The position numbers and the translations under genes are program-made. Shown in pieces: positions 28,240 through 39,595 of a stretch of DNA of 64,000 bases. The stretch comes from Longimicrobiales bacterium. GTDB taxonomy: Bacteria > Gemmatimonadota > Gemmatimonadetes > Longimicrobiales > Gaopeijiaceae. Within the stretch, counting starts at the first letter, position 1; every line of letters begins with the position of its first letter. Where the stretch lies: NCBI GenBank assembly GCA_965202985.1, contig CBDBCF010000001.1, forward strand, positions 2,855,940-2,919,939, in the 5' to 3' direction. The notes beneath the pieces are model-generated. The model ran no database searches, had not been told where the DNA came from, and worked only from the letters and a program-made list of their open reading frames with translations.

Positions 28240-28441
28240 GTCGCCCACCCCTTTCGCGTGGGGGCGTTGGCGCTAGGCTTTTTAGCAGTCAGGCCGCAAT
28301 ACGCCGCAAATCGCCGTGGTCGTTCCGCCCGCGCGTTGCCCCGTGTCGGGCGCCGTCGCGAGCATTCCAACGATAGCCGAATCCCCGGAGGGGTTCCATG
28401 TTGCGACCGCCCCCGCCCGCCAGCCGAGAGAACGAGGCCCC

Positions 28442-28954
28442 GTGAGCGAAAGCCAGTTCGGCGCCGTGCCGTTCACGCTCAAGCGCAGCACCGACCTGTG
28501 GGACCGCAAGGGCTACACGACCAAGACCGAAACCGCCCACGGCCTGGTGCGACTGGAGGGCGGCCGACTGGTCGTTCAGTGGCGGCTGGCCGTGCACACC
28601 GAGTCGGTGGGCAGCGCCTCCTGGACCAAGGAGGAAGAGATCGAGCCCGTCCGCGAGACCGTGATCGCCTTGGAGCGCGTGGCCGGCGCCAAGGTGACGG
28701 GCAGCAGGCGCGGGTTCCTGCGTCCTCCCAAGCTGGTGATCGCCGCCGCGGACCTGATGGCCTTCGACGAGATCGCCGGCGGCCAAGGCCTCAAGCTCAA
28801 GCACCCCGCCAAGCTCGTCTTCCGCATCGGCCGTCGAGACCGCCTGGCCGCCGAGGAGTTCGCGGCCGAACTGGCGCTGGCCCTGGCCCGGTTGCCGGGA
28901 CGAACGGCCGTCGCCGGCCCCGCCGCTCTCCCGTCGCCCGAGGAACGGAGCTGA
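28442..28954 (+). CDS. Hypothetical protein
   Basis: Clean ORF with host-like codon usage; no recognisable motif; start uncertain. Confidence 0.6.
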   Translation: MSESQFGAVPFTLKRSTDLWDRKGYTTKTETAHGLVRLEGGRLVVQWRLAVHTESVGSASWTKEEEIEPVRETVIALERVAGAKVTGSRRGFLRPPKLVIAAADLMAFDEIAGGQGLKLKHPAKLVFRIGRRDRLAAEEFAAELALALARLPGRTAVAGPAALPSPEERS

Positions 28955-28956
28955 CC

Positions 28957-29690
28957 GTGCCTGCTCGTCCAGCCAGCCGGATTCCCGTGGGGAGCCAGTT
29001 CTCTCCAACTTGGTGTCGTTGCCGGACTTCCTGGACGCGGCGATTCGGCACTCCGGCGACAAGGAAGCCCTGGCAATAGCGGTATGGCAGCCGCCCGTTA
29101 GGATCTGCACGGTGCGGAAGATGCCGACCAAGCGACGGGCCAAGCTCCCACTGGAGGCCGCCGTGCAGTACGGCCTTCTGACGTCCAGAGAGTATCGCGC
29201 GACGGACTTGGCAGAACAGCTGTCTGTACGGACGGGCCCATCTCTCTACGACCGATTCGCCCGGCATATTCTCCTCAACTGCGGCGGGCTCCGGGTCGTG
29301 GAAGCCGTTCTGCAGATGCAAGAGGACGACTTGCGCGTCACCGGCGACTCGCTGGCCAAATTCCTGACTACCCAAGGCTTTTACGTGGCCGAGCACAACA
29401 CGGCCGTCAACACTCTGCGCATGTGGTTGTCCAAGGCCAGCATTTTTCCCCAAGGCAGGTCCGGTGCCTGGACGGTCAACACGGTTGCAAAAGAACGGAT
29501 TCTCGGTCTCGACGACACCCAAGTTTTCACGTTGGCGGGCCTGACAGTTGCGCAGGTCGCCTTTGTCGAAGGCCTCTGCGTTCTGCGGCCGTCTGGATGG
29601 ATCAAAGCCAGCGACGTCCGAGATTGGGCGGAGACGTTTCGGGGGGTCTCGATTGGCAGAGGATCGTTGCCTTCGGAGGTTCTCGAGCCA
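28957..29690 (+). pseudogene. Truncated, frameshifted gene; possibly N-terminal part of a restriction endonuclease
   Basis: IPVGSQFSP|LVSLPDFL frameshift near 29008; FARHILLNCGGL, TLRMWLSKA; lower GC; sense breaks at ~29690. Confidence 0.5.
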
Positions 29691-30392
29691 GTTGTGATCC
29701 TCCGAATGCCGATAGAAGGCGTTGAGCGGCTCCCCTCTGCTGGGATCTCGAACCCCATAGCCGAACAGGGCGTGAATCTCTGTCGTCAGGGTTTCCCATT
29801 TGTCGCGTGATTCCGATAAGCGCAACAGCATGTTTCTCAACACGGTGGCGCCGCCACCTCTCGACAATCGAATTCGCAACACGTCTTCCTCGAGGATGGA
29901 TTCTGTCTCCTCGATCTGCAGCGAAGACGGAATGTAGACGGCGGAAAACGGATCAAGGCCGCAGATTCGCAGTTCTTGGACACCAACGGCGTCGGCCGGT
30001 CGAACGGCCATCGTCCCACTGGTCTTGAAGGCCAGCTCGAGAGCGACCTTCCATTCTTCTGTGTGGATGGCCAAGACTATGGGTTCACTCACTTCTCGGT
30101 CATGCCACAGGTGAACGAGGGTCGTGACGGCTACCGAATGTACGCCGTCAAGCAAGGTTGGGACGTAACCGCCGTCTCCCATGCGCATCGCGTCCTCGGA
30201 CTCGCCGCGCAACCACCCGGACGCCTCGTCGTCTTGTATCCAGTGGTGCCAAGCCTCCGCCCACAACGCAATTGCCTGCAACACCGTCGTCTTGCCGCAG
30301 TTGTTCGGTCCCACCATTACGATCTGGTCGTCGAGCTCGAACGTAGCGTGTCGAAACCGCTTGAAGTTCCGGACTTCCAACTTGCGGATCAT
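29682..30392 (-). pseudogene. Truncated ABC/AAA ATPase (paralog of 37808-39544)
   Basis: MIRKLEVRNFKRF, Walker A GPNNCGKTTVLQAIALW; similarity ends before ABC signature/Walker B. Confidence 0.8.
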
Positions 30393-30767
30393 TTTGGGAC
30401 CTCGGTACGCATGCGGTTCGCTCGGGGGACGAACAGCTTTGGGGCGTCACTCCAAACCACTCGGCCACGGCGGAGCCAGTAGTGGCACTGGCAGGGCAGG
30501 GCGGCGACGTGTATCGACGGATGGAGCGAGAGCGTGCCGTCCATGTGTTCCGTGATCCGCCAGCGGCGGCTGCACCTGGGAGGCAACGTCCAGGTTGACA
30601 ACGCGACGACATACCCGACGGGGACACGGGACGGCGGCGTGGAAGGGGTGTCGGCGTCCGCCTACGACGTATACCGTGCGGCGCTGGGGCTCATCGGGAA
30701 GGTCGTCCACCCACTCGGTGCGGTACGGCCGAAAACGCGCGACGACGTTCGCAAGCCACCTGATCAT
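30389..30767 (-). pseudogene. DUF6527-like Cys/His protein, +1 frameshift near 30566
   Basis: DDLPD...VPCPRRVC...NL in one frame; RWRI...TLSLHPSI...CQCHYWLRRGRVVW in the next. Confidence 0.75.
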
Positions 30768-30771
30768 CGGA

Positions 30772-32166
30772 TCATCGGACGACGTTGTTCTGCACGAGGA
30801 CGCTAGCGTCGCCCGTACCGACGTACTTGGCGAAGAGCGGATGCGGATCGCCGGAATCGGGCGTTGCCTCGTAGTCGCCGTGGACTAGGCGCAGCCGCTG
30901 GGTCGCGAAGTTGCGGTTCGGATCGAGGCGGTACGAGTGCATGCGCGCCAGGAAGTCGTTGAACGCCAAGCACGCCGCCTGCATGTTGACGGAGATCACC
31001 GCCGGCTGGTCCTCGCCAACCTCTTGAAGATAGCCGGCTGTCCGCTGCGTCTCGTAGTGGTCCGGGTCGTGTCGCCGCCAGTTTTCGGCCGTGACTTGCT
31101 CCATGGTGTACGCTCCGCGGGAGAGCAGGTTGCTTCCGTCGGGGTGAACGTAGTGCGCGACCGCGTCGGCGTCGGCAAGCCCGCCTTCGCCGTCGGCGTC
31201 CAAGTTGACCCCGACCTCGAAGTAGGGTATGCAGTATGCGCTCGCCAGGCAATCGAGGTGGTACCGGCCGGACGCGGAATCGACGCAGCCGAAGAGAACG
31301 TCGCAGTCGATCAACGCCTCCGTCGCTTCCCGCGAGTCCGTCAGGCAACGGTAAGTGTCCACCGACGTGCCGAGGCCCATCCTCTCCACGGCTCGTCGCA
31401 GCGCGTCCACCTTGGGCCGCCCCGCATGGGCGTCCTCCATCGAGCCGTTGACGATGCGGTTCAGGTTCTTCGGTTCCATCGCGTCGTCGTCCACCATCAC
31501 AATCGCGCCTACGCAGTTGCGCACCAGCAGCTCGATCACGACGCTGCCGGTCCCCGAGCAGCCGACCACGCCGACCCGAAGCGACCGGAGCAGGTCGAGC
31601 GTTCCCCGGCCAAAGGTCTGGGCAATGCGCGTCTCGTGCTCCTCGACGCCTGCTTTCGCGACGCCGCCCCGCTTCCAAATGCGAATGTCCTCGCCGACGC
31701 TGCACACGGCGCTCGCTTCGGCGAAGTTGCCGTCGGGTTTCAGCGTGCGCGCCCTGATCGCCGAATCCGGCGTCATGATCGCGGAGCCGTTCATCCTGTC
31801 GTCGTCGAACCACGAGGAGATCGAATCCAACAGCTCTCGGTCCGTCCGGTCGTCCAGTTCCGAGAAGCGTGGATTGCCCGTGGGGTGCGAGTGAATCGTG
31901 ACGATCGACTGGCCGTTTCGGTCGATGGACTCGATGCGGTCGGGCTCGAGGTGGTCGGCGAATGGCCAGGACACGAAGTCCTTCTTCCTTTCCGAGCGCC
32001 GGTGGGGGAGCAGGAGAAGATCGGCGACGACAAGGCGCTGGTGCAGCTTGCCGGTTCCCTGGTTGCAAACGAGCACGGCGGCAGCCTCGAGGCCGTCGCC
32101 GGGGAACAGGTGATCCGACAAGCGACGGTGCTGGCTGGCGGTCATGGCCAGCAGGGCGCTCCTCAT
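30772..32166 (-). CDS. JAB/JAMM peptidase - ThiF/E1 adenylyltransferase fusion
   Basis: HLFPGDGLEAAA...HSHP...FSELDD (JAMM); VVGCSGTGS, DDDAMEPKNLNR, FGCVD (E1). Confidence 0.9.
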   Translation of the reverse strand: MRSALLAMTASQHRRLSDHLFPGDGLEAAAVLVCNQGTGKLHQRLVVADLLLLPHRRSERKKDFVSWPFADHLEPDRIESIDRNGQSIVTIHSHPTGNPRFSELDDRTDRELLDSISSWFDDDRMNGSAIMTPDSAIRARTLKPDGNFAEASAVCSVGEDIRIWKRGGVAKAGVEEHETRIAQTFGRGTLDLLRSLRVGVVGCSGTGSVVIELLVRNCVGAIVMVDDDAMEPKNLNRIVNGSMEDAHAGRPKVDALRRAVERMGLGTSVDTYRCLTDSREATEALIDCDVLFGCVDSASGRYHLDCLASAYCIPYFEVGVNLDADGEGGLADADAVAHYVHPDGSNLLSRGAYTMEQVTAENWRRHDPDHYETQRTAGYLQEVGEDQPAVISVNMQAACLAFNDFLARMHSYRLDPNRNFATQRLRLVHGDYEATPDSGDPHPLFAKYVGTGDASVLVQNNVVR

Positions 32167-32585
32167 CGGCCCGTCTCCGCCTTGAGCTCGTTCCTGGCGT
32201 ACTGGACATGCTTGGCAATGCTGTCCTCTCCGGGGTTCCAGTCGTAGTGCCGGGACCACCGCTGCCAGTTCGTCTCGAAGTGCGCTTCCTCTGCGAGGGC
32301 GCCAATCTCTTGGCCGTCGAGCCGAGCCAGCCGCGGGTAGAAGTAGAACATGTCCAGCCCCGCCCCGGGATAGCCGGTCGGGATCAGAAGCATGAGCGTG
32401 CTCCGCTCCCGATCGTAGCCTGGCGGGATCGGGAAGTCCTCGATGAAGAGGCCCCACTTGCAGTTGCCGGGTCCCTCCGCCTTGCGTTTCCAGGACGAAC
32501 CGTACTCAGCGTCGAACGCGTCCAGGTACTCCTCGTCCTCCGGCGGCAATTGGTAGGGAGGCGACGAGCGGTCCGGCTCGTCCAT
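32163..32585 (-). CDS. Prokaryotic E2/UBC family protein (family E-like)
   Basis: FPIPPGY...LLIPTGYPGAGLDMFYFYP...WQRWSRH; overlapping start/stop with neighbours. Confidence 0.88.
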   Translation of the reverse strand: MDEPDRSSPPYQLPPEDEEYLDAFDAEYGSSWKRKAEGPGNCKWGLFIEDFPIPPGYDRERSTLMLLIPTGYPGAGLDMFYFYPRLARLDGQEIGALAEEAHFETNWQRWSRHYDWNPGEDSIAKHVQYARNELKAETGR

Positions 32586-33337
32586 CAGCCCTGTTGCGCT
32601 TGCCTGCGGACGGTCTCGAAGCGCTCGACGCCGGGTTCTGCGAGATCGACCTCCTCGTGGGCCTCGATCCTGATCCGCCGTCCTCCGCGAAGCTTCTGGT
32701 TGAGGGCCCAGTCGATGGTGCGCTTTGCCACCAGCGCCAGTATCTCCGCCCCGGAGATCACGCGCTTCTCGACCACGAACCTGTCGCGGTCCACGCGGAT
32801 GCGATAGCGGTGCCACCGGGGAGGCCGTCGCTCGTGCTTGGTGCACTCCTCGACGTCCACGGCGGTCTCGCCGGGCGCGTCTACCGGGTGCGGCACGACG
32901 AAGTACGAGTCCGTGGCCTGGACGACAACCGTGGTGCCGTCCGGAATCTCGACGTCGACGCCTTCGTCCGTGCCGTCCTCGACCGTGGCGAAGAGGCGGC
33001 CGCAGGAGACCTCGTCGTCGCGTCCGGCCAACTCCTCGGCGGCGATCTTGCCACCCTCCACGCGAACCTCTCTGTCGCCGTTGAACTCCGGCGTTACGGC
33101 GCGGGGCGGACCCGAAGCCGCGTCCCCAGCCGCATCCGCGAAAGCAAACTTCTCTCCGCCGCATACAAGGACGACCTCGGATGCCGCGAGGGGCGTGCTT
33201 GGCCTTTCGTCGCGGACGAGGAAGAGGGTGTCGTCGTCGCCGGTGCCCGCGAGCACGCGCAGTCGGCCGCCGGACACGAGCCCTGCTTCGGCCGCATGAC
33301 CGCGGCCATCGATGAAGACAGTGACGATCCCAGCCAT
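32585..33337 (-). CDS. Multi-ubiquitin-like domain protein ending in Gly
   Basis: [10 protein letters not shown]; about three beta-grasp-like repeats; YRIRVD..ISGAEILAL..VDLAEPGVERFET; C-terminus AQQG. Confidence 0.85.
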   Translation of the reverse strand: MAGIVTVFIDGRGHAAEAGLVSGGRLRVLAGTGDDDTLFLVRDERPSTPLAASEVVLVCGGEKFAFADAAGDAASGPPRAVTPEFNGDREVRVEGGKIAAEELAGRDDEVSCGRLFATVEDGTDEGVDVEIPDGTTVVVQATDSYFVVPHPVDAPGETAVDVEECTKHERRPPRWHRYRIRVDRDRFVVEKRVISGAEILALVAKRTIDWALNQKLRGGRRIRIEAHEEVDLAEPGVERFETVRRQAQQG

Positions 33338-33730: not shown

Positions 33731-34888
33731 ATGGACCGACACCGCAACGAACACCAACTGCCCGACCACGACCCCGACTCGTCGCAGCAGCCCGACTGCG
33801 TGGCCGATGCCCCGGACTCCCAGGACGACGCGCCCCAAGAGCGCGAGCGCCGTCGCCACGACCAGACCTACAAGGCCCTCTTCGCCCACGGCGCGGCGAT
33901 CGAATCGCTGATCCGCGACTTCCTGGCCGTCGAATGGCACCAGCACCTCGACCTCGGCACCGCCGCGCTCGTCCCCACCGAGACGATCTCCGAGGGCCTC
34001 AAGCGCAGGCTGGCCGACTTCGCGCTCCGCATCTGGTTCAAGGGTGGCGAGGCCTCGGTCGTCTTCCTGGTCGAGTTCCAGGCGTCCCACGATTCCGACA
34101 TGGCGCTTCGCACGTTGGACTACGCGATCGGGATGGTCGAGGCGTTGCGGGCCAACCCGAAGATGCTGGACCCGGGGGACGCCGTGCCCCTGCTCCTTTC
34201 CTGCGTCCTCCACACCGGTCCGAAGCGCTGGCCGGCGGAGACGAGCTTGGCCGCCTTGACGCGCACGCCGGAGTCGCCGCCGGCCGTGGCGCGCGCCGTA
34301 GCCGGCTTCGGCACCGCGCACCGCTGCGTCGTGCTTGACTTGCAGTCGGCGTCGGCGGAGGGCTTGTTGCCGGCGGACTCGTTGCTGGGCTGGCTGGGCG
34401 CGTTGGAGCGGGCGCCGCTGGGGGACGCCTTTCCGCGCGTGCACGCCTCGTTGGCGAGGCATCGGGCCGGGGAGGGGCATCGTTCGTTCCGGCGGTCGTT
34501 CGCCAGGTGGACGGACGAGCGGATGCGAGCGGCGGGCGTGCCGGCGGAGCGGACGGAGGTTATCGTGCAGGGGATCATTCAACCCGAGGAGGCGCTGGAG
34601 ATGGGCCAGACGTACTACGAGGAGTGGGTGGAGGGACACGAGCGCAGGGGCATGGCGAAGGGCGTGAAGCGGGGCGTGAAGAAGGGCGTGGTCCGGGGTC
34701 ACCGGGAGATGGTGCTTCGTCTGGCGTCGCGGAAGTTCGGGGCGGAGACGGCGAAGCGTCTGGAGGGGCTGGTGGGGTCGATGGGTCCCGAGCAGCTCGT
34801 GCAGGTGGGCGACGCCGTTGTGGACTGCGACACGGGCGACGACCTGCTGGCCGAGGCGGCGAACGGTGCCTCCGCTAGCTTAGCTTAG
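33731..34888 (+). CDS. Rpn family recombination-promoting nuclease / putative transposase
   Basis: HDQTYKALF, RRLADFALRI, FLVEFQASHDSDMALRTLDY, VLHTGPKRW, xGxx repeats, RKFG C-terminal domain. Confidence 0.9.
   Translation: MDRHRNEHQLPDHDPDSSQQPDCVADAPDSQDDAPQERERRRHDQTYKALFAHGAAIESLIRDFLAVEWHQHLDLGTAALVPTETISEGLKRRLADFALRIWFKGGEASVVFLVEFQASHDSDMALRTLDYAIGMVEALRANPKMLDPGDAVPLLLSCVLHTGPKRWPAETSLAALTRTPESPPAVARAVAGFGTAHRCVVLDLQSASAEGLLPADSLLGWLGALERAPLGDAFPRVHASLARHRAGEGHRSFRRSFARWTDERMRAAGVPAERTEVIVQGIIQPEEALEMGQTYYEEWVEGHERRGMAKGVKRGVKKGVVRGHREMVLRLASRKFGAETAKRLEGLVGSMGPEQLVQVGDAVVDCDTGDDLLAEAANGASASLA
34601..34888 (+). CDS. Putative internally translated small Rpn protein (RpnS-like antitoxin)
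   Basis: GAGGAGG 8 nt before the in-frame ATG (MGQTYYEEW). Confidence 0.55.
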   Translation: MGQTYYEEWVEGHERRGMAKGVKRGVKKGVVRGHREMVLRLASRKFGAETAKRLEGLVGSMGPEQLVQVGDAVVDCDTGDDLLAEAANGASASLA

Positions 34889-37794
34889 CCCGGAGGGCGC
34901 GTCGCCTTGCCGCCGTGCACCGTCGGCTCGGCGCACCAGCTGTCGCGCAACGTGGCCAGTGGTTCCAGCAGCGTTTCGGGCAGGCCAAGCACGTCGACCA
35001 GAAGCAACCGGTCCAACTCGTGGCGAGCGTCGTCTCGGTAGGCCTCGTTGGCAGGAAGCATCTCGCGGTCGACAAGCTCGTCGAACAGGCTTTCCGACGC
35101 GGCGATCTGTGCGGGCGACAGGTCGCGGGGGTCCAGCACCAGCAGCTCCGGAAGGCGACTGATCGTGAGCATGGCGCGGCCCTGCTGCTGACGACTGCCG
35201 ATCCACCAGAAGCACATGAGGCCAAGCGTGCTGTTGGCCCAGAGCGCCAAGGGCTTCTCCCATTCCGCGCGCTTCGCCAGGAAGTTGGGCCATGCGCGGC
35301 CCCCGATGCTCTTTCCGGGCGTCAAGCACGCCGCCAAGCTCTGCGAGTTGATCTGGAAGTCGCGGCTGAAGTGCAGTCGGGAGGCCGTTTCCTGCCATAG
35401 GTCGACGGCGCGTCGCCGGAGTCCCTCGCGCACGACGCCCTCTTGGGCCGGGGCCACGACCAGGCTTCGCTCCCTGTCGGCGTCGTGCGACCACAGCACC
35501 GGGTAGAGCGGTCGGTCTCGCGCCGCAAAGATGTCGAACGGTCCTCGGGGCGAGCCGTCGGGATGCTTGCCCGAGATGTCGCGGTCCAGCTTGCCGCGCA
35601 TTCCCAGGGCGCCCAGGCGCGTCATGGGGACTCCCGGTCGGTCGTTCGTGCGCGGCAACACTAGGCGGCCGGCGTGCAACGCAAGCATGGCGTCGGCCAA
35701 CTCCGGCTCGCGCAACGCCGCGCAGCCGCCTTCGGACACGGGTGCCCGGACGAACGTGCCGGCGTCCTGGTCGCCCAGGCTGAACCGCCCGCCTCGGCGG
35801 TCCGTGGGCAAGCGCCGAACCGCGCGCGCCGTTTCCGCCGCCTCGGCCAAGCTCCGGGGTCTCCGCAGAAGGTTGACGAACAGCGCGTCTCCGGACGGCG
35901 CGTCCAGGTCCTGCTTCCGGGTTGCGACCACCAGCACTTCGGCCATCCCCGTGTCGGCGGAGAAGGCGCGGTCGGTGTTGCCGCTGGCCGCAATCGACAC
36001 GACCAGCAAGTCCTGGTAGCATCTGTACACCAGCGCTCGAGCCGGCGCCCACGAACCGCCCTGTACGAACGCCGCGGGCAAGACGAGCGCGATCACGCCG
36101 CCGGGCTTCGTCTTCGCGTGCGCCAAGTCCACGAAGTGCGAAGCCAGCCCCGCGTTCCCGGTTCCCGCCGGCGAATCCAGGTTCTTGCGGATGCGCGCCA
36201 GCCGGTCGGACATGGCCCGCTGCTCGGCCTGCGACGTGTCGAAGCCGGCGAACGAAGGCACGGGCACGTCGGTGGCCTCGTGGTTGGTGGGGCGGGTGAA
36301 CGGCGGGTTCATGATCAGCAGGTCGCCGCTCTCGTGAGGCAGTTCGACGGAGCGGGGGTCCGCGCCGTTGGGGGTCGCCCCGATCCCGAACGCGGCTTTG
36401 CGGCCCGTCCCGAAGATCGAACGCGCGACCTCGTCTTCCAGCAGGTCCAGCGAACCCAGCGACAGGGGCCGGCCCGCGTCCTCCTGTTCGCCGTAGGGCA
36501 TGGTGATGATCCGCGTGTCTCGAAAGGTGACGGCCGGGTGCGCGCCGGACAGGATCGAGGCCGTCAGGTGCGTGGCCGCCGGCATGATGTCGGCCGCGAT
36601 CAGCGCCTTCTCCATCATCGTCGGGTGCAGGTCCGCGTCGTTGCCCCCGGAGCGCCGGTGGCGCGCGCGCACGGACTGATAGGCCGCGTTCAGGAGGGTG
36701 CCCGTGCCGCACGCCATGTCGGCGATGCGCAGCTCGGCCACGGCCTTGGCGTCGGCCCAGTCCACGCTCAGGCGGTGCGTTGCCAGCTCCGCGAGCAGCA
36801 CGGCCGAGGCCGGGAGCGTGTAGAAGGTGGCCAGGAACTTGCGGTCCACAATGAGGCGCTGAAACATCTGGCCCGACAGGTCGTGGGTCGTGCTCGCTCC
36901 GTGTTCCGACATCTTCAGCGCAAGCCGCTCCAGGCGTTCCAAGATGTCGTTCGCCATGCGGTTCGGCATCGGCGTGAGCAGGTCGGTGGCGATCTTGAAG
37001 ATCGGCCAGTAGTTGACCTCTCGCAGAATGCGTTCCCAGCAATCGAGCAGCAGGTGCTTGTCGAGTCGCCGGAACGGCTCGCGATGCATCTCGCGGAACT
37101 CCGGGACGTCGTGAGAACCGACAAGGCTCGTGTGAAAGATCAACGCGTTGGCGACGATCGCCATCGCCATGCGCGTGGTCTGCTCGCTCTCTTCCTGATG
37201 AAGGTCGCGGGCAAGCCGTTCCAGCGAGTTGGTCCGGCGCCACTCGACGTACTCCTCCAAGCGTGCCGCCGCTTGGCTGACGCCCTCTTCCAGCATTGCC
37301 GCGCCTTCCGCGACCCGCGCCTCGGACAGCGACGCGTGCTCGATGCACGTCGCCAAGGCGTCCACGCCGCCCCACAGCCATCCCGTCTCCGGCCAGCGCT
37401 TGGGCTCGCCCGGCGCGTCCGCGAAGACGGCGTATCGAAAGCGGGCCGAGGCCACCCTCGTCGCCAATTCCTCCTGGTCGGCCACGACAAGCTCGTCCGG
37501 CAGCAACACCGCCACCGACTGCTCGACGGGCCTCTCCGTCGCCCTCATGACCTTGCCCAGACGGGCGCAGGCGTCGGCTTCCACTTCCGAGCCCGGCGCG
37601 AACTCGGTCTCCACAATGACCACCTGCCCGCCGGGATGCCGCACCACAATGTCCGGTCGCCGCGCCGCTTCGCCCAGCACTCGCGACTGCTCGACCCCGA
37701 TTCCCCCGCGCCAGCCTGGGTGCTTGTTGCGCAGGACTTCGGCCAAGTGGACGTTGACCGTGGCTTCGTTGTTGGCTGCTTTCGCGACTTGCAC
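34885..37794 (-). CDS. Type IIG-like restriction-modification fusion (nuclease + N6-adenine methyltransferase + TRD)
   Basis: RPDIVV...IVETEF nuclease-like motif; FYT, motif I ADMACGTGTLL, motif IV IMNPPF. Confidence 0.85.
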   Translation of the reverse strand: MQVAKAANNEATVNVHLAEVLRNKHPGWRGGIGVEQSRVLGEAARRPDIVVRHPGGQVVIVETEFAPGSEVEADACARLGKVMRATERPVEQSVAVLLPDELVVADQEELATRVASARFRYAVFADAPGEPKRWPETGWLWGGVDALATCIEHASLSEARVAEGAAMLEEGVSQAAARLEEYVEWRRTNSLERLARDLHQEESEQTTRMAMAIVANALIFHTSLVGSHDVPEFREMHREPFRRLDKHLLLDCWERILREVNYWPIFKIATDLLTPMPNRMANDILERLERLALKMSEHGASTTHDLSGQMFQRLIVDRKFLATFYTLPASAVLLAELATHRLSVDWADAKAVAELRIADMACGTGTLLNAAYQSVRARHRRSGGNDADLHPTMMEKALIAADIMPAATHLTASILSGAHPAVTFRDTRIITMPYGEQEDAGRPLSLGSLDLLEDEVARSIFGTGRKAAFGIGATPNGADPRSVELPHESGDLLIMNPPFTRPTNHEATDVPVPSFAGFDTSQAEQRAMSDRLARIRKNLDSPAGTGNAGLASHFVDLAHAKTKPGGVIALVLPAAFVQGGSWAPARALVYRCYQDLLVVSIAASGNTDRAFSADTGMAEVLVVATRKQDLDAPSGDALFVNLLRRPRSLAEAAETARAVRRLPTDRRGGRFSLGDQDAGTFVRAPVSEGGCAALREPELADAMLALHAGRLVLPRTNDRPGVPMTRLGALGMRGKLDRDISGKHPDGSPRGPFDIFAARDRPLYPVLWSHDADRERSLVVAPAQEGVVREGLRRRAVDLWQETASRLHFSRDFQINSQSLAACLTPGKSIGGRAWPNFLAKRAEWEKPLALWANSTLGLMCFWWIGSRQQQGRAMLTISRLPELLVLDPRDLSPAQIAASESLFDELVDREMLPANEAYRDDARHELDRLLLVDVLGLPETLLEPLATLRDSWCAEPTVHGGKATRPPG
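37631..37684. repeat. 54-bp direct repeat, copy B (inside the R-M nuclease motif)
   Basis: Matches 33476-33529. Confidence 0.95.
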
Positions 37795-37807: not shown

Positions 37808-39544
37808 CTAGGTCGAGGCGGATTCGGCGACTCGGGCGATGGCGTCCAGCTTTTCTTCGACTTCGGGAGCGATCTCGTCCTTTGGGACGTGCTTGGCGAG
37901 CACGTGAAAGTTCTTCTTGGCCATTGCGTTGGGAAGGTCCAGCTCGCGGTAGTAGGAGTCGAAGAGCGGGACCAGGAAGTCGTCGCTGACTTTGATGTCG
38001 GCGTCCCACGGCGATCCCTTGCCCAGCGTCTGCCGCGCGGCTTCCATCTCGGCGATGGCTTTGCGCATGGCCGTCACGTGCCTGTGGGACTTGGGCGCTT
38101 GGGACAACGGGCCGAGGACGCCCAGGCCGGCATCGCCCGCGGCAAACGCCTCCAGCGTGGTCTGCGTGCACAGATATTTCTCGATCTCCCGTTGCTTCCA
38201 CTCCGTGCATTTCAGAGGGGCAGCGGGCTTGGGCGCCGTCCCGCCCAGCCGGTCGAAGATGGCAATGCCCCGAAGGTGGGGAACCGCCTCGCGGAGACCT
38301 TGGAAATGCCTCTGAACTTCCGAAACGTGATTGCCTACGTAGCGCACGAAGGGGCGCTCGAGAGCACGAAGTGCGTCGTCGTGACCCAGCCTCCGCGCAA
38401 AGGCATGGAGAATGGCCAAGTCCGTGGAGCCTTCCAAGTAGAGTATCCATCCCGTTTGCTCCGCCTGATAGTAGTCCTCGAAGCCGATCTCCTTCAATGC
38501 TTTCGCCACCTGACTCCCGCCGTGCGGATCGCCCAAGCGGTGTGGAGAACCCACGAACGCAACGACCAAGTCGCGTCCCGCGGCCTCGTTGAGCACGACC
38601 TCGGAATGGGTTGCGGCCACGATCTGGCTTCCGGTTTTCTCGGCCACTTCGGTCAAGACGCTGTATGTTTGGCGTTGGCGGAGGATCTCCAAGTGTGCAT
38701 CGGGTTCGTCCAGGAGCAGGACCGCGCCACGGTTGGCGTACATGTAGGCGAGCAGAAGCAGTGTCTGTTGAAGGCCTCTTCCCGATGCGGACAGGTCCAG
38801 CGTTGCGCCTCGCTCCCGGTAGCTCATGGCGATCTCGCCCCGTTGCGCCACGTACCGGGGCGGCTTGATTCGCGCTCCGAACATGTCTTCCACGCGATGC
38901 GCCAAGTGGTTCCATCGCTCGGGCGATTCCTCGTAGAGGCGGTGGCAAAGGTTGCGCAAGACGTCCGCGGTCCGCCCTTCGCCGATCCGAACCTCCACGG
39001 CGCCGGGGTCCAAGCGCACTTCGGTCGCCGCCAGGCCCGACATCGGAGGCAAGTAAGCGACGCGGACATCGACGGCCTCCGTCGGGATCGACATGCGGTC
39101 CGGGTTCTTGCCCTCGCCCGTCCGCAACGGCCTGCAATAGAACGATTCCTCGTTGGCGTAGTCGAACTCCAGACCGCACGCCCAGTTTCGCCCTGCGGAA
39201 ACGCCTTCTACGACGATCTCGACCAGCACGTTGGACGTGCGCTGACGGCCGTCGTCCCTGCGAACTTCCCGAACATGAAGGTCGCGCCATAGGAGCTTGG
39301 CGACCGGCACGGGAACCGCCACCAAGTCCCGTCGGTTGACCGCTACGCTGGGGCGCTTCCACGGAGCGTCTTGCACCCCCCGCTTCTCGGCCCAGCGCTG
39401 CAGGCCCGCGTGCCACAACGCCAGCGCCTGAAGCGCGGTCGTCTTGCCGGAGTTGTTGGGTCCGACGAACACGACCGGGCTGGCCAGCTCGACCTCGGCG
39501 TCTTCGAAACGCTTGAAGTTGCGAACTACCAGCTTGGTCAGCAC
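37808..39544 (-). CDS. ABC/AAA ATPase with C-terminal TOPRIM-like domain (OLD-like)
   Basis: GPNNSGKTT, SGRGLQQ signature, LLLDEPDAHL, ATHS, YLEGSTD...IFD...REIE. Confidence 0.88.
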   Translation of the reverse strand: MLTKLVVRNFKRFEDAEVELASPVVFVGPNNSGKTTALQALALWHAGLQRWAEKRGVQDAPWKRPSVAVNRRDLVAVPVPVAKLLWRDLHVREVRRDDGRQRTSNVLVEIVVEGVSAGRNWACGLEFDYANEESFYCRPLRTGEGKNPDRMSIPTEAVDVRVAYLPPMSGLAATEVRLDPGAVEVRIGEGRTADVLRNLCHRLYEESPERWNHLAHRVEDMFGARIKPPRYVAQRGEIAMSYRERGATLDLSASGRGLQQTLLLLAYMYANRGAVLLLDEPDAHLEILRQRQTYSVLTEVAEKTGSQIVAATHSEVVLNEAAGRDLVVAFVGSPHRLGDPHGGSQVAKALKEIGFEDYYQAEQTGWILYLEGSTDLAILHAFARRLGHDDALRALERPFVRYVGNHVSEVQRHFQGLREAVPHLRGIAIFDRLGGTAPKPAAPLKCTEWKQREIEKYLCTQTTLEAFAAGDAGLGVLGPLSQAPKSHRHVTAMRKAIAEMEAARQTLGKGSPWDADIKVSDDFLVPLFDSYYRELDLPNAMAKKNFHVLAKHVPKDEIAPEVEEKLDAIARVAESAST

Positions 39545-39595
39545 GTGCGGCCCCCCATGGCCTGGTTGACCGATGGCCACGCCGGCCGAATCAAG

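Follow-up and report, generated by a model that had tools for sequence, protein, structure and literature searches.

A Type I Bub operon joined to an apparently undescribed, clade-limited ATPase gene, in a decayed copy from a Longimicrobiales bacterium

Introduction

What does a gene for an ABC ATPase do directly behind a set of bacterial ubiquitination genes? The question is raised by five genes in a 64,000-nucleotide stretch of DNA from a Longimicrobiales bacterium (assembly GCA_965202985.1, contig CBDBCF010000001.1, positions 2,855,940 to 2,919,939), which as a whole is called the window. The genes encode a ubiquitin-like protein (Ubl), an E2, a JAB-E1 fusion, a DUF6527 protein and the ATPase. 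We found that this is a known operon type, Type I Bub, extended by an apparently undescribed, clade-limited fifth gene, and that the copy in the window has decayed. Below, G000 is the genome of the window (contigs C1 and C2), L numbers are loci of relatives and X numbers are sequencing runs.

The accessible text of PMC11601596 describes ATP-dependent conjugation of BubA by the Citrobacter Bub system via Tyr and Ser oxyesters, and reports neither phage protection from any Bub operon tested nor a target. The words 'ATPase' and 'TOPRIM' do not occur in PMC11601596, in its supplements or in PMC11601603, and the row for the 6e operon in the accessible part of PMC1779556 holds no ATPase. In a literature search that left subscription journal versions outside, the accessible texts dealing with DUF6527 were PMC11601596 and PMC11601603 only, and no publication was found that pairs Bub with an OLD-type nuclease.

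Results

We found that the first four genes are almost certainly a Type I Bub operon, encoding BubA, BubB, BubCD and BubE. Multi_ubiq (PF14452), Prok-E2_E (PF14462), Prok-JAB with ThiF, DUF6527 and AAA_15 all scored above the Pfam gathering score, with DUF6527 falling on the second frame of gene 4 and AAA_15 on gene 5. Neighbouring genes overlap as TGATG (Ubl and E2), ATGA (E2 and E1) and again ATGA (DUF6527 and ATPase), and four bases separate E1 from DUF6527. Coordinates, junctions and domains thus agree with the five tightly coupled minus-strand genes of a preliminary description made from the letters, and Pfam together with the Citrobacter structures confirmed the nature of the gene products (Table 1).

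The JAMM residues E27, H92, H94 and D105 are all present, as had been claimed, and align to E28, H91, H93 and D104 of Citrobacter BubCD (9ea4_A); in the same alignment the adenylation Arg R237 corresponds to R227 and the E1 nucleophile Y379, in the crossover loop, to Y370. In the E2, D78, S111 and H113 correspond to Citrobacter D299, S333 and H335. The catalytic residues of BubCD were invariant in 15/15 aligned clade members. Earlier remarks that the E1 lacks the expected catalytic Cys (there is none in residues 354-386), that the only Cys of the E2 lies near its N-terminus (C42) and that the Ubl ends in a free Gly (AQQG-stop) all hold. The E1 nucleophile is Y379 and does not lie in the stretch DGSNLLSRG, where a catalytic Cys had been expected. 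A catalytic Cys elsewhere in the E1 was ruled out, as Tyr379 aligns to the experimentally tested Y370. A Bub-type, Cys-independent system was rightly recognised; it is a plain member of Type I, not merely Bub-like.

The Ubl likely consists of three beta-grasp domains. A model of the fused BubAB protein of L009 (mean predicted local distance difference test score, pLDDT, 71, low in the linkers) matched Citrobacter Ubl3 (9d5a) over 244 columns with an E-value of 2e-8, and Citrobacter BubB with a root-mean-square deviation (rmsd) of 1.5. Ubl and E2 were fused in 10 of 16 loci of the ATPase-linked clade and split in the other 6, as in the window. The accessible main text of PMC11601596 calls the fusion universal in Type I, unlike its Table S1, which has separate Ubl and E2 genes in at least 31 of the rows available; the split was accordingly rejected as a novelty. 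PADLOC v2 has no model that covers the window's Ubl, E2 or DUF6527 genes, and viral contigs gave no stretch matching the BubCD patterns.

The DUF6527-like protein had been put down as a Zn-binding accessory. This was corrected: in the accessible text of PMC11601596 it is BubE, a Ser-His protease of weak activity that strips off conjugates, which makes it more than a Zn accessory. In the window, the second frame of bubE holds the Ser-His pair and two Cys, and PF20137 is above its cut-off. The frameshift near 30567-30600 is a one-base insertion; in contigs from runs X1 and X7 a base is missing at 30567 relative to the window, and bubE reads in frame. In L001, bubE is cleanly deleted, leaving a 25-base gap and an intact ATPase gene, and runs X4 and X8 contain a related strain with the same deletion. 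By alignment, the Cys pattern of BubE is CxxxC...CxC in the clade as against CxCxC...C in Citrobacter. The bubE genes of L003, L005-L009, L011, L013 and L017 lack the second Cys of the published CxCxC cluster and have an additional one two residues past the last (CxCH), which preserves four possible Zn ligands.

The fifth protein is likely a TOPRIM nuclease of OLD/PARIS-2 type with an ABC ATPase. AAA_21 and AAA_15 were found in 13/13 intact relatives, with invariant GK(T/S), DEPD and THS (Walker A, Walker B and H-loop); only Walker A remains in place in the window fragment. In a model of the L003 protein (pLDDT 82), the first 360 residues matched PtuA, SMC heads and AriA. The same model aligned loosely, end to end, with GajA (8u7i; Z 12.8, rmsd 10.8, 384 aligned) and, again loosely over the whole length, with the retron Eco8 OLD protein (9lp9) and TsOLD (6p74); TOPRIM chains were listed only via such whole-length alignments, in which the C-domain was part of the full L003 model. 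The PADLOC AriAB profile matched 13/13 members and extended into the C-domain. There, Y-x-E-x3-D, a further Asp, EIExY and a Lys are invariant in 15/15 rows, and we take these residues to be TOPRIM metal ligands and motifs. Atlas neighbours of the C-domain were unnamed clusters, DUF4435 (0.95) and OLD-like TOPRIM (0.91). The window fragment and its paralogue score below the NCBIfam curated cut-offs. A complex prediction for BubAB and the ATPase of L009 scored 0.29, below the 0.32 mark, and was not used as evidence.

We then asked how regularly the ATPase gene accompanies Bub. Among 78 stretches matched in GTDB genomes, 17 code for a relative of BubCD at 60-89% identity (close loci). The start of the ATPase gene lies directly downstream of the operon in all 17, after bubE in 15 and after bubCD in L001 and L002, where bubE is gone. 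This bears out the earlier suggestion that the ATPase is a conserved companion of homologous operons. The ATPase is full length in 13 of the 17 and broken in four: interrupted in L002, frameshifted in L011, and reduced to stubs of 31 residues in L005 and 10 codons in L015, the last called by eye, as the profile did not detect it. Five phyla (Gemmatimonadota, Pseudomonadota, Latescibacterota, Nitrospirota and Binatota) and one unclassified bacterium are represented. Other neighbours vary on both sides. A divergent motif of an ImmA/IrrE (CapP-like) peptidase was seen upstream in 6 of the 15 loci checked, L001-L003 not being among the six, which fits shared regulation. All five genes are intact in L003, L009 and L012.

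As distant controls, a metagenome scan gave at least 596 stretches and at least 470 relatives, of which the best 80 (39-58% identity) were kept. None of these 80 had the ATPase behind Bub, and 61 offered at least 300 bases after bubE; among plasmid records with BubCD, 0 of the 7 examined (of 55) carried it. The ATPase was thus found in 0/68 informative distant Bub loci (60 distinct BubCD), so Bub does not need it. A FastTree phylogeny built from 97 distinct BubCD sequences united all 18 ATPase-linked members in one clade, with support of 0.447, or 0.988 when L052 was included, a locus with no ATPase start within the roughly 230 bases available. A single clade means one gain rather than 18 independent ones.

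In the reverse test, ATPase profiles were run over sets of 251, 201, 53 and 126 genomes, scoring 5 to 27 candidates in each. The 16 places that passed comprised 11 behind Bub genes, one directly before bubA (L001) and 4 away from Bub. All 11 matches with at least 680 bits on the Bub-linked profile stood behind Bub; ten were rows of that profile and only G269 (L130) was new.

A quick IQ-TREE phylogeny of 29 ATPase sequences placed the 16 ATPases downstream of Bub in a group with G000:C1:2298847 and L001's upstream copy (support 99, inner fork open). These two nearest paralogues stand after helicase/restriction genes. Twelve paralogue loci were viewed by eye with 1.5 kb flanks, the L001 upstream copy being the thirteenth; several lie among methyltransferase, type III restriction and helicase open reading frames (ORFs), and the remainder had unrelated neighbours. 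In L001 (3000-9067) the Bub genes lie between two ATPase-TOPRIM genes, with about 40% identity to each other's group.

The ATPase and BubCD trees agree on their main groups and deep forks. Pairwise identities of the two proteins across 14 loci gave a Spearman coefficient of 0.89 (91 non-independent pairs), with means of 50% for the ATPase and 70% for BubCD; the ATPase drifts faster. Losses fall on either side: bubCD is frameshifted and the ATPase intact in L017, the ATPase is a stub or frameshifted and the Bub genes intact in L005 and L011, and bubE and the ATPase are both broken in L002 and in the window. L008 (7740-9377) and L010 (7740-9347) share 94% in BubCD and just 46% in one ATPase segment, in which L008 and L017 (7739-9394) are 85% alike. 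This patchwork in the second half of the ATPase gene, at the ATPase-TOPRIM junction, suggests recombination among L008, L010 and L017.

The last two genes of the operon had been described as damaged, and both lesions were confirmed. The second can be refined: homology of the window ATPase ends after residue 237, where the window joins the N-terminal halves of the ATPase gene and of a restriction-endonuclease-like gene at TCTCGAG. At G000:C2:112831-112837, the same 7-mer joins the two C-terminal halves, with no base gained or lost. The ATPase gene is therefore not simply truncated; the break is one end of an exact reciprocal rearrangement with the restriction-endonuclease-like gene. The C-terminal half of the ATPase gene (G000:C2:111892-112837) is frameshifted and is interrupted by a stop within its YVEG motif; that of the other gene lies at G000:C2:112832-113488. 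We call the latter an endonuclease from what we take to be a PD-(D/E)xK motif and from a convergent methyltransferase-like ORF (C2:113485-114594). One rearrangement has knocked out two defence genes. From the two contigs alone, it was either an inversion or a translocation. Loss of the ATPase by simple deletion was rejected, both C-terminal halves having been found on C2. A resident CTCGAG-cutting enzyme as the cause was not supported, since among the 64 six-base palindromes CTCGAG ranks 12th in avoidance, with an observed/expected ratio of 0.62.

Four of 15 listed runs were examined. The runs listed for the stretch are recorded as sponge metagenome, marine metagenome or a coded organism, and no RNA dataset is among them. 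A 2847-base contig from X4 spans both lesions and corresponds to window 28300-30999 with zero differences. The window may itself derive from X4, so this match checks the assembly and not how general the strain is. Contigs from X1 and X7 continue past 29681, unlike the window, and differ from it at many other places; they are other strains.

Table 1. Features of the Bub locus in the window and of the adjoining rearrangement
Feature	Position	Strand	Evidence
bubA: ubiquitin-like protein, 250 amino acids, likely three beta-grasp domains, free C-terminal Gly	32585..33337	-	PF14452 on residues 178-242
bubB: Ser-type E2, 140 amino acids (D78, S111, H113)	32163..32585	-	PF14462; solved Citrobacter BubB 9eav_D, E 1e-24
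bubCD: JAB/JAMM peptidase-Tyr-type E1 fusion, 464 amino acids (E27, H92, H94, D105, R237, Y379)	30772..32166	-	solved Citrobacter BubCD 9ea4_A, E 3e-72
bubE: DUF6527 serine protease, frameshifted pseudogene, two frames	30389..30767	-	PF20137 on 30389-30601
ABC ATPase with likely TOPRIM nuclease domain (OLD/PARIS-2-like), N-terminal 237 codons	29681..30392	-	68% identity to intact 548-amino-acid L001 gene
Breakpoint of precise reciprocal rearrangement, shared 7-mer TCTCGAG	29681..29687	.	same 7-mer at G000:C2:112831-112837
Restriction-endonuclease-like gene, N-terminal half, outside operon	29010..29687	+	72% identity to G001 gene; intact 442-amino-acid homologue in L136

Upstream of bubA, on the other strand, the operon adjoins a YhgA/Rpn-like gene (PF04754, 33671-34735); the genome contains over 20 related matches, one of them 97% identical. 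An N6 methyltransferase-like gene of 969 amino acids (34885-37794) has at least 4 homologues in the genome, and directly upstream of it lies a full-length ATPase-TOPRIM paralogue (37808-39547). Outside the window, at G000:C1:about 282150-285908, we observed another ubiquitin-like locus, in which a short Ubl-E2-like ORF is followed by a JAB-E1 fusion of 489 amino acids that is 30% identical to BubCD and then by ORFs of 338 and 215 amino acids (labels by eye). No DUF6527 match was found there.

Discussion

In the explanation that we favour, and to which we give about an even chance, the fifth gene is a co-expressed, self-contained abortive back-up nuclease, probably not itself a tagged target. 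Our reasons are that close paralogues belong to other loci, that the majority of Bub operons have no ATPase, and that parts of the cassette are lost separately. Paralogues, including the nearest ones, lie in or beside restriction-type loci without Bub, which speaks for a self-contained module. Such genes have precedents: in the accessible part of PMC10568477, OLD proteins are sorted by their genetic surroundings into single genes, Gabija partners and retron partners, with class 1 acting as a single gene; the available text of PMC12409363 gives AriB as a tRNA nuclease; and that of 10.1101/2024.01.29.577857 describes ABC ATPase-TOPRIM genes as frequent passengers within other defence operons.

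From the Citrobacter system and the conservation of residues, BubCD would adenylate the C-terminal Gly of BubA and take BubA on Tyr379, from which it would pass to Ser111 of BubB. As in Citrobacter, BubB would then link BubA to a target lysine and BubE would remove it. The ATPase domain, to judge from its family, may sense infection as the ATPases of OLD and PARIS do; sensing would free the TOPRIM domain, and cleavage of nucleic acid (tRNA or DNA) by this domain would halt the cell. Bub and the ATPase would be held together by a shared promoter and by selection as layers of one defence cassette, which may move between marine, probably sponge-associated, bacteria. In the window strain the back-up is dead, its gene being cut, and the gene of the de-tagging protease is frameshifted. 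The reading frames of bubA, bubB and bubCD are open, and only these three proteins could still work there.

Several observations weigh against a self-contained back-up. Retention across five phyla, down to identities of 58% in BubCD and 35% in the ATPase, is stabler than for the usual passenger and fits direct coupling equally well. The Bub-linked copy was the only family match at E<=1e-40 in 6 of the 10 genomes searched for paralogues. The accessible text of PMC11601596 shows no phage defence for any Bub operon. The frameshifts in L011, L015 and L017 may be assembly errors. The TOPRIM assignment is indirect: Pfam found DUF4435 in just 2 of 15 C-domains (E 0.07), and a C-domain profile run against solved structures returned chance matches only and no TOPRIM.

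The preliminary description had suggested that the ATPase may be an undescribed effector or target. The companionship stands; the effector or target role was not borne out, the gene being limited to one clade, found in none of the informative distant loci, and its partners being lost independently. That the ATPase-TOPRIM protein is a direct effector or target of this Bub clade appears possible but doubtful. The route we can picture is equally tentative: BubA would be linked to the ATPase, or a BubA-tagged phage protein or BubA filament would be read by the ATPase domain, so turning the nuclease on, and BubE would turn it off. Parallels are CBASS, where Cap2 primes its cyclase, and the class 3 OLD proteins, which are guarded by retrons. 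The unbroken association in the close loci, the stop-start overlap and the congruent trees argue for such coupling, as do the joint damage to bubE and the ATPase in the window and L002 and the 11 strongest reverse matches, G269 having been found through its ATPase alone; long co-inheritance favours direct gating by BubA. However, ten of those 11 matches were rows of the profile, bubE has been lost from L001 and from the related X4/X8 strains with the L001 ATPase intact, and the closest paralogues follow helicase/restriction genes. That the protein is the missing Bub effector, a nuclease gated by cysteine-free tagging and a new context class of OLD nucleases, is likewise unlikely in our judgement.

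The gene could also be a neutral hitch-hiker: after a single arrival behind bubE in a mobile cassette, linkage would have kept it there, with neither a common function nor any gain from co-expression. A single origin, weakly supported when L052 is left out, would agree with this, and so would the abundance of the ATPase family in the defence loci of these genomes and the broken copies in four close loci and the window. We consider it improbable nonetheless: the reading frame is complete in 13 of the 17 loci, with Walker A/B, the H-loop and the acidic residues of the C-domain invariant, although their other neighbours vary. It is very improbable that the cell has an intact operon and that the lesions in bubE and the ATPase gene arose in assembly. 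The X1 and X7 contigs, free of the extra bubE base and continuous past the breakpoint, would speak for such an artefact, but they come from other strains that differ from the window at many other places; the X4 contig is identical over both lesions, C2 has the reciprocal junction, and the far half of the ATPase gene carries a stop and a frameshift of its own.

The co-expressed back-up nuclease remains our preferred account. A clade that keeps a nuclease-type gene with Bub across five phyla offers five genes that can be built as one concrete construct and put to a clean epistasis test; the window copy is a poor choice for experiments because two of its genes are broken. If tagging gates the nuclease, bacterial ubiquitination and abortive infection would be connected in a new way, and the effector reading, if true, would give a first biological output for a pathway with solved chemistry. 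If tagging does not gate it, the locus would be one more layered defence cassette.

The nearest known system, going by the accessible text of PMC11601596 (Ye, Gong, Chambers, Corbett), is the Type I Bub of Citrobacter sp. RHBSTW-00271 (BubAB-BubCD-BubE, formerly 6E.1/DUF6527; PDB 9ea4, 9eav, 9eae). The window shares with it the gene order, the JAB-E1 fusion with JAMM, adenylation Arg and crossover-loop Tyr, the Asp/Ser/His of the E2, a DUF6527 protein with its Ser-His pair and a three-domain Ubl ending in Gly. Unlike Citrobacter, the window has separate Ubl and E2 genes and a coupled downstream ATPase-TOPRIM gene, and its bubE and ATPase gene are broken. With the anti-phage operons of Bil (bacterial ISG15-like) Types I and II it has in common Ubl, E2, JAB and E1 functions in one operon and a multi-beta-grasp Ubl. 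Bil operons, according to the available text of PMC11601596, have catalytic cysteines, separate JAB and E1 genes and no DUF6527, whereas the window operon, with neither a Cys-dependent E1/E2 nor a separate JAB gene, uses Tyr/Ser chemistry and a JAB fused to its E1. The fifth protein resembles the OLD family (P2 Old, TsOLD 6p74, GajA and the retron Eco8 effector) and fused PARIS AriAB in its N-terminal ABC ATPase with Walker A/B and H-loop, in a C-domain with conserved acidic residues, and in its whole-length structural alignment to GajA, Eco8 OLD and TsOLD. It differs in its partner, which is a Bub operon and not a helicase (OLD class 2), a retron (class 3) or none (class 1).

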